Below are positions 1 through 848 of a DNA stretch of 848 bases, in pieces. A model generated the notes under the pieces. The model did not search any database. It was not told where the DNA came from and saw only the letters and a program-made list of their open reading frames with translations. The position numbers were made by a program, and so were the translations under genes. Source of the DNA: Escherichia coli (GTDB taxonomy: Bacteria; Pseudomonadota; Gammaproteobacteria; Enterobacterales; Enterobacteriaceae); the NCBI RefSeq assembly GCF_003334335.1, contig NZ_QOWQ01000145.1. One strand, 5' to 3'. Position 1 is the stretch's first letter; every line of letters begins with the position of its first letter.

Positions 1-848
1 CTTTTCGCGCCGGTGTGTATTCCGGCTCCACCTGTCTGGCCAGTTGCTCCACCGTCAGCCCGCACTGCGCAAGCCACGCCCGGCTTTCACTGCTCACGCG
101 GTCTGCCCGGATTTCTTCCTCCAGCCTGTCCAGCAGCCGCACCAGTTCAGCCGGGAACACCACGCCGTGGCCGTTCTCACTCCCTTCCTGCTGGAGCGTC
201 TCTGCCAGGCTGCGCCGCTGCGCTTTTTCCCGCTCGCCGTTCTCTGTCTCGACCCGGATGAGCGGCGTGAAGCTTCCCGGCTCGTATACCGTCTGGATAC
301 GTGTGGTGTCAGTCTGCACCGTCGTCAGCCTGTCTCCGTCCCAGCCATACCACGTCACCTCCGGTTTACGCGACAGCGACATCCACCCCGTCAGGTCACG
401 CTCCCGCCGCCAGACCCGTTTTGCCATTCGCCGTCCCAGCGGGTCGTAGAGGTAGCGGCTCTCGACCAGTGGCTCGCCATGCTGTATCCGCGTGTAGAAC
501 ACCAGGCGGTGCTGGCTGTCGTAGTGGTAGTGGTGGGTCCGCTCGTCGTCCGTCCGTATCACACCCGCCGGGATGCGGTCCGTCTTCTCCGTCAGCCTGC
601 CGTATTCATCGTGGCGGTAGACATAGTGCGCATCCTCCGCGATGCGGTTATCCGGCCACACTGTGAGTGTACTGTCCGGGTGCAGCTCCGGGTCCGGCAG
701 CCGGTTGCCCGCCGGGTCCGTGGCATACGGGATGCGGATGTCCAGGTCTGGTGCGAGGGTGCGCACACTCTCCAGCCTGCCCGTGGCGCTGTAGCCGTAT
801 TCCCGCGTCTGTCGCGGGCCGCTGATGCGCACCAGGTCGCCGTTGTCA
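1..848 (-). CDS. rhs: Rhs-family YD-repeat core protein, internal fragment (partial at both ends; enterobacterial RhsA/B/C-type core; the variable C-terminal toxin domain is not in the window)
   Basis: The reverse complement read from + coordinate 847 gives 282 sense codons with no stop, ending at + coordinate 2. The window therefore sits entirely inside a longer ORF. The translation contains YD-repeat motifs: [10 protein letters not shown] (residues 16-25), [14 protein letters not shown] (75-88), [12 protein letters not shown] (107-118), [13 protein letters not shown] (131-143) and [10 protein letters not shown] (166-175). The 3' part ([97 protein letters not shown]) matches my recollection of the E. 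coli Rhs core shortly upstream of the core-terminating PxxxxDPxGL motif. Family assignment is from memory, not a search; 'rhs' is a family-level symbol and the paralog (rhsA/B/C/D-like) is unresolved. Confidence 0.88.

Follow-up and report, generated by a model that had tools for sequence, protein, structure and literature searches.

An 848-bp internal piece of an Escherichia coli RhsD/RhsE-type Rhs gene that coincides with an exact rhsD/rhsE repeat

Rhs elements have been described in Escherichia coli K-12 since the 1980s and owe their name to the term 'rearrangement hot spot'. Their products have an established role as encapsulated polymorphic toxins delivered by a type VI secretion system (T6SS), and the RhsD-E core subfamily was reportedly defined by the laboratory of C. 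W. Hill. The window considered here is a whole stretch of 848 nucleotides from an E. coli assembly (GCF_003334335.1, contig NZ_QOWQ01000145.1), and it lies within the core of such a gene, which is read on the minus strand. Its translation is an exact substring of the 1426-aa E. coli RhsD, residues 872-1153, and the same 848 bases are found at both the rhsD and the rhsE locus of K-12.

Coding content of the window

The features of the window are the following (motifs 1 to 4 by a loose pattern; window coordinates).

2-847, minus strand: coding frame of 282 codons, RhsD residues 872-1153 and the equivalent part of RhsE
245-847, minus strand: YD-repeat (beta-hairpin shell) part, window residues 1-201, RhsD 872-1072
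773-799, minus strand: YD-type motif 1, YGYSATGRL
593-625, minus strand: YD-type motif 2 (11 protein letters, not shown here)
503-529, minus strand: YD-type motif 3, YHYDSQHRL
428-454, minus strand: YD-type motif 4, YLYDPLGRR
326-349, minus strand: YD-type motif 5, YGWDGDRL, also by the loose pattern
5-244, minus strand: non-YD helical insertion, RhsD 1073-1152 (from 11 protein letters, not shown here, to EYTPAR)
2-847, plus strand: stop-free antisense frame, a by-product and no gene
1-848: maximal exact rhsD/rhsE repeat of E. coli K-12, with a mismatch at the next base on both sides

The original prediction, made from the letters of the window, had placed it inside the conserved core of an Rhs gene and had considered it part of a known system rather than a new one. 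Both statements are borne out by the exact match to E. coli rhsD/rhsE and by the NCBIfam model NF041261 ('RHS element core protein'), which matched the translation end to end (positions 875-1156 of 1261, 623.7 bits, E = 7e-187). This model is an equivalog with a curated cut-off of 2000 bits, under which the window falls only through covering 282 of the 1261 positions; the whole RhsD gene reached 2787.7 bits over positions 1-1261. The repeat models that had been proposed for checking the translation gave a divided answer. The TIGR01643 YD repeat was detected at window residues 164-188 with 17.2 bits against a cut-off of 15.8, whereas Pfam RHS_repeat (PF05593) run on the window alone returned sub-threshold matches only, with a best E of 0.028. 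Pfam RHS_repeat by itself misses this part of the core, and its sole use would have misled. On the host gene, TIGR01643 (YD_repeat_2x) matched 7 stretches with E = 1.8e-47.

A megablast search against complete E. coli genomes found a match in 3823 of 5426, at a median of 3 places per genome, and the best place was at least 99% identical in 1483 records. All 25 matches listed were 100% identical over the full length and lay under annotated Rhs genes, which were named rhsD, 'RHS element core protein' or 'RHS repeat-associated core domain-containing protein'.

Six-frame translation of the 848 bases confirmed the predicted minus-strand frame (offset 1, window 2-847), with 282 codons and no stop. 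The plus strand at offset 1 was likewise free of stops over 2-847, and the remaining four frames contained 4-9 stops each. At least one fully open frame is uncommon by chance, being observed in 64 of 3000 dinucleotide-preserving shuffles of the window. The repeated motifs that had been noticed in the translation were also recovered, since a loose YD-motif pattern gave five matches against a mean of 0.089 and a maximum of 2 in protein shuffles; the coordinates of all five were checked by translation. The wording 'YxYDxxGRL-like' is the right one, because the literal pattern Y.YD..GR[LVI] is missing from the window (in RhsD it occurs only at residues 363 and 746). All five motifs lie within window residues 17-174 and none in the last ~80 codons (window 5-244). 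The fifth belongs to a conserved W-G-W-DGDRL strand directly before the insertion, as judged from the conservation of this flank in the alignment of relatives. Internal repeats in the window were limited to short pairs at chance level, and an Rfam search of both strands at E <= 1 gave no match.

Two other interpretations of this coding content were weighed. The plus-strand frame at 2-847 could be regarded as a real gene overlapping rhs in antisense, given its 282 codons without a stop and given that two frames were open together in none of the 3000 shuffles. However, it is codon-for-codon antisense to rhs and can only meet a stop where rhs uses TTA, CTA or TCA, none of which is present among the 25 Leu and 14 Ser codons of the window; the plus frame is open because these codons are avoided. 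The open antisense run corresponds to rhsD codons 855-1210, and the chance of a stop-free antisense window is ~0.03 given the codon usage of the whole rhsD core. Third-position G+C amounts to 75% in the core, where such openness is expected, and to 81% in the window. Moreover, the translation of the frame is of low complexity and rich in Arg, Pro and Val, it matched no NCBIfam family, and no plus-strand gene is annotated there in the records examined. This candidate gene was rejected, its likelihood being close to nil. No more credible is an origin in another kind of YD-repeat protein, such as an insecticidal Tc-toxin C subunit, a WapA-like wall-associated protein or a teneurin-like protein. 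These proteins do have a YD shell in common with RhsD, and YenC2, TccC2/3 and teneurins were recovered as distant matches (E = 1e-5 to 1e-27). The Tc-toxin BC cocoon (TcdB2-TccC3, YenB-YenC2) and teneurins also resemble RhsD in that their RHS/YD shell ends in a conserved Rhs-associated core. Nevertheless, the YenC2 and TccC2 matches cover RhsD ~1194-1321 only, similarity outside the C-terminal plug is weak, and these proteins operate with a TcA injection device or at the eukaryotic cell surface. The window, on the other hand, matches E. coli rhsD/rhsE exactly, its match to the RHS_core equivalog is far stronger, and neither a TcB-like partner nor a cell-wall-anchoring feature is annotated at the loci.

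A perfect repeat between rhsD and rhsE

In K-12, two perfect copies of the window were observed, one in the intact rhsD (L003 4862-5709) and one in the rhsE pseudogene (L001 9001-9848). The elements that carry them, rhsD-ybbC and rhsE pseudogene-ydcD, show no difference from the window over its length. The ends of the window are, to the base, the ends of the block of perfect identity between the two genes: on the plus strand, the base before position 1 and the base after position 848 are G and C in rhsD, and A and T in K-12 rhsE. This suggests a window excised as, or by chance equal to, a maximal exact repeat in the genome. As the copies are identical, the window is not assignable to rhsD or rhsE, intact or dead, without at least one flanking base.

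Outside the block, the homologous flanks of the two K-12 genes are 8-10% diverged, with 31 of 400 nt mismatched on the 5' side and 31 of 300 on the 3' side. Over the 1562-nt alignable core, no difference was found in the 848 nt of the window versus 66 in the 714 flanking nt. When 66 mismatches were placed randomly, a run of at least 848 nt was obtained in none of 200000 trials (longest run 344; analytic bound 2e-21).

The comparison of nine rhsD/rhsE alleles revealed a mosaic. The last 312 nt of the core, from the window to the DPxGL codons (L001 9849-10160 and its equivalents at the other loci), go together with the tip: no difference separates the rhsD alleles in this part, rhsE alleles lie within 14 nt of each other, and rhsD and rhsE are 34 nt apart. 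The window segment, in contrast, is not locus-specific. K-12 rhsD, K-12 rhsE and the rhsE of strain Z217-4 are identical, MLI105 rhsD is 1 nt off and BL21 rhsE 2 nt off. Much further from the window sequence are the rhsD genes of Z1322HEC0001 and AR_0128 (66 nt) and the T6SS-linked rhsE alleles (71 and 104 nt). The rhsD-like tract of BL21 rhsE reaches further 5' than that of K-12. Because a perfect 848-nt tract sits amid flanks of 8-10% divergence, and in view of the mosaic pattern of the nine alleles, the identity most likely reflects gene conversion, that is, homologous recombination between the rhsD and rhsE cores within a lineage.

Such a conversion fits the history of Rhs elements as hot spots of rearrangement and the models in which tips are swapped between cores (PMC2935791, PMC3967940). 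It also has a counterpart in the rhs-main/rhs-CT-orphan arrangement of Salmonella Typhimurium (Koskiniemi et al. 2014, PMC3967940), in which a near-identical core stretch common to two copies serves as recombination substrate. The shared stretch there is 522 bp at 95% identity, compared with 848 bp at 100% in K-12 rhsD/rhsE. In Salmonella Typhimurium, the copies are adjacent, and recombination was seen experimentally and activated the orphan toxin (PMC3967940); K-12 rhsD and rhsE, by contrast, are two separate chromosomal loci between which the exchange is deduced from sequence. Two points weigh against the conversion or limit it. Recombination between cores at different E. coli loci was judged infrequent, if it takes place at all (Jackson et al. 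2009, PMC2935791). Furthermore, the nine alleles do not assign donor and recipient, the window segment being locus-specific in neither direction.

Two rival accounts of the identity and of its carrier have to be considered together with gene conversion. As the tract is protein-coding and conserved at the protein level among relatives, this part of the shell could be assumed to be under extreme purifying selection. An assembly artefact that collapses repeats could be invoked as well, since short-read assemblies are known to fall apart at Rhs repeats (PMC3045373). Selection on the protein, however, leaves synonymous differences, of which none are seen in 848 nt next to 66 differences in 714 flanking nt, and orthologous alleles elsewhere are 66-104 nt off, so that the sequence is free to vary. 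The K-12 genome is finished and many complete assemblies, made independently, contain the same sequence, which leaves selection or artefact very improbable. It is considerably more plausible, although still short of even odds, that the window stems from a dead copy, for example an rhsE pseudogene truncated as in K-12-like strains or some other incomplete Rhs fragment, that acts as recombination substrate only. The K-12 rhsE pseudogene ('missing N-terminus', 678 codons) holds the window at 100%, BL21(DE3) retains at that site an Rhs without a complete N-terminus together with a piece of vgrG, and the rhsD of strain MLI105 has an internal stop. Yet intact rhsD genes of 1426 aa contain these 848 bases too, as does the full-length rhsE-type gene behind vgrG in Z217-4. 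A dead copy would be a matter of which copy is at hand and not a different object, and nothing within the window tells the loci apart. Because identical DNA is also present in a truncated pseudogene, an intact and deliverable toxin gene is not guaranteed.

Altogether, the best explanation, with a probability of roughly 96%, is that the window is an internal minus-strand piece of an E. coli RhsD/RhsE-type Rhs gene, whose ends most likely mark a conversion tract. The identification itself meets no contradicting evidence, and the window is in this respect an ordinary, already known object, the E. coli RhsD/RhsE core.

Signs of decay were also observed in other natural alleles of these loci. In addition to the internal stop of MLI105 rhsD, ybbC of AR_0128 has an internal stop beside an intact rhsD, and the T6SS-linked Rhs of TW10828 is frameshifted.

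Decayed alleles: L010 814-5094; L009 5134-5502; L005 3800-8036

Predicted toxin tips, immunity genes and delivery

The host gene runs on the minus strand; its start lies beyond window position 848, and the end of the core, the tip and the immunity gene lie beyond position 1. Its core comprises ~1260 residues, to which the window contributes the last YD-repeat strands and the insertion of ~80 residues. Upstream of the window, Pfam recognizes DUF6531 at RhsD 46-123 and nine significant RHS_repeat matches within RhsD 365-678. Downstream, PF03527 'RHS protein' covers RhsD 1155-1190, and the window stops one residue short of it. The Rhs-associated core model, which the original prediction had named as a further check, is found in the host gene ~28 residues past the window (TIGR03696, RhsD 1181-1258, 82 bits against a cut-off of 32.5). 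The core ends with the motif PLQQIDPMGL at RhsD 1249-1258, 105 codons past the window in matched genomes; it follows the pattern PxxxxDPxGL, which marks off the variable tip in Rhs polymorphic toxins.

Alignable similarity between rhsD and rhsE is lost directly after the DPMGL-coding bases. The tip that follows differs from the core in composition, with a G+C of 37% compared with 63% in the core and 65% in the window, and a third-position G+C of 18% compared with 75% in the core. At the rhsD locus, the C-terminal tip contains DUF4329 (residues 1292-1411, Pfam E = 9e-37) and is followed by ybbC; at the rhsE locus, a different tip is followed by ydcD (YdcD family, NF050020). DUF4329 is the Tox-JAB-2 toxin clade, which is paired with Imm-NTF2 family 2 immunity proteins (PMC3482391), and a ybbC sequence is labelled 'NTF2 fold immunity protein' in one record. 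Rhs tips are toxins that are neutralised by the product of the downstream gene (PMC3150448, PMC3967940). Gene order and domains fit predicted toxin/immunity pairs for the RhsD tip with ybbC and for the RhsE tip with ydcD. The expectation that such a pair should sit beside the shell is thus supported at the level of gene order and domains, a tip with ybbC or ydcD being present at every locus examined. The pair begins ~316 nt beyond window position 1 in matched genomes.

Several additional elements were observed around these pairs. Downstream of ybbC come an orphan tip fragment of an Rhs ('missing N-terminus') and then small hypothetical open reading frames, which vary from strain to strain; they probably represent tip/immunity cassettes that have been displaced. 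At the rhsE locus, the annotation places a small antisense gene, yncO, over the end of ydcD, and two ISAs1-family transposase genes, one of them frameshifted, come after the rhsE module.

Orphan Rhs tip fragment and small open reading frames: L002 11101-12258; L003 2452-3609; L008 5505-6684
yncO and the two ISAs1-family transposase genes: L001 10993-13626

Solved Rhs homologues and published work together allow a mechanism to be proposed for the product of such a gene. Its YD repeats would fold as a closed beta-shell around the C-terminal toxin, and the Rhs-associated core domain would cut the toxin free within the shell. The loaded shell would sit on a VgrG spike and be fired by the T6SS into neighbouring bacteria, while the downstream immunity protein would shield siblings. 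According to published work, the YD repeats form a closed container round the toxin, the protein cleaves itself, and the container is placed on the T6SS spike (PMC8636562, PMC8765631), and Rhs encapsulation and autocleavage are likewise reported in bioRxiv 10.1101/2024.02.26.582050. The RhsD core is homologous to the solved shells, most closely to Tse5 (8cp6, E = 7e-122) and 7q97 (E = 6e-86); further homologues are Tse15 and the Rhs proteins of Salmonella bongori and Advenella, and weaker ones include Tc-toxin C subunits and teneurins. The solved T6SS Rhs effectors, namely P. aeruginosa Tse5 (8cp6), 7q97, A. baumannii Tse15 (8uy4), the S. bongori/Advenella proteins (8qja-d) and 7pq5, have a YD shell and an Rhs-associated core domain homologous to those of RhsD over most of the core (E = 7e-122 to 2e-41). 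According to the literature, they follow the same logic of encapsulation and autocleavage. By this homology, a closed shell and aspartyl autoproteolysis at the core/tip junction would be expected for RhsD as well.

With regard to delivery, gene neighbourhood in other strains points to a link between this core type and the T6SS. At the site of the K-12 rhsE remnant, strain Z217-4 has vgrG and, directly after it, a full-length Rhs that bears the ydcD tip. Strains TW10828 and 98234 carry the same core type with the ydcD tip and immunity gene after tssB-hcp-vgrG. In BL21(DE3), the site of the K-12 remnant contains only a fragment of vgrG and an Rhs with an incomplete N-terminus. The K-12 rhsE remnant thus has its full vgrG-rhs-ydcD counterpart elsewhere, either at the yncH-pptA site or in a T6SS cluster beside tssB-hcp.

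vgrG-rhs-ydcD modules and the BL21(DE3) remnant: L007 1639-8503; L005 1-8502; L006 1-8488; L004 4023-8482

Several observations limit this mechanism for the K-12 copies. In the loci examined, ybbP or an IS66-family element lies upstream of rhsD and no vgrG is annotated beside it; the annotation of the K-12 rhsE locus likewise shows no vgrG. Of the K-12 copies, one is a pseudogene that lacks the N-terminus. The Pfam PAAR motif (PF05488) aligned to residues 3-20 only, with a non-significant E of 0.19; for this reason the host gene is not classed as PAAR-Rhs, whereas some solved Rhs proteins have a clear PAAR domain. K-12 is not known to have a T6SS. Delivery by the T6SS, mentioned originally as frequent among Rhs proteins, is suggested for rhsE-type alleles by their position beside vgrG or tssB-hcp-vgrG, but not for rhsD, in view of its loci examined. 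Delivery of the K-12 copies is doubtful, and these copies may be undeliverable.

A predicted helical insertion in the shell

The window had been described as conserved shell and not variable payload. It does lie entirely within the core, but ~28% of it is a helical insertion and not YD-repeat shell. The YD part of the window can be aligned to Tse5 (8cp6) and 7q97 up to RhsD 1072-1073. The alignments to four solved Rhs chains end at RhsD ~1070-1073 (...FTPLIRVET) and restart at RhsD 1140-1156 (...AHLYHCDHRGLP). Between these anchors, that is, between the ...FxPL... and ...YHCDHxGxP... strands, RhsD has ~80 residues, compared with 3 in 7q97, 16 in 8qja, 22 in 8cp6 and 34 in 8uy4/8uxt. The S. bongori structure paper (bioRxiv 10.1101/2024.02.26.582050) notes a loop, 1312-1315, that varies in length among Rhs cores; mapped by alignment, this loop appears to be at or very near the RhsD insertion site.

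The insertion is common among close relatives. A search of 1.84 billion cluster representatives retrieved 432 proteins at E <= 1e-30, and the best 150 of these 432 were examined. Both anchors were spanned by 99 of the 150, and all 99 carry a segment of 61-116 aa at this site, with low sequence conservation within the segment. Several database proteins show an upstream part of the Rhs core joined immediately to the insertion (in one example, 31 protein letters, not shown here), and one further protein is without most of it; they have the appearance of chimeric gene calls or of deletions that arose internally between repeats.

AlphaFold2 modelling of RhsD 1035-1177 from a 38-sequence alignment gave a mean pLDDT of 92.9. 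In this model, strands are predicted for RhsD 1037-1073, and five helices are predicted at RhsD 1074-1080, 1085-1092, 1104-1118, 1124-1132 and 1137-1141, between conserved shell strands. A Foldseek search of the modelled insertion against the PDB returned only Rhs shells, via the flanking strands (TMq ~0.4), and left the helical module unmatched. T6SS Rhs shells have been called smooth and undecorated in one structural paper. As a guess, the helical module could be a structural decoration or a docking surface.

For the biology of the family, the window first represents repeat DNA from a multi-copy, recombining gene core that is found at a median of 3 places per genome, and it is not to be placed at a single locus. 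It also forecasts a toxin/immunity pair ~316 bases past its low-coordinate end. The sharply bounded tract of identity is a small addition to what is known of the family, and the helical insertion, missing from the solved Rhs structures examined, is another one beyond the textbook description. A broader proposal, which is tentative and rather doubtful as it stands, is that the helical module may represent a functional accessory to the Rhs shell of enterobacteria and that the tract may mark recent, possibly recurrent conversion between loci, which the differing breakpoints of K-12 and BL21 would fit. If true, the helical module might provide a docking surface for a spike, an adaptor or a chaperone, or might act as an element that lines or gates the cavity of the shell.

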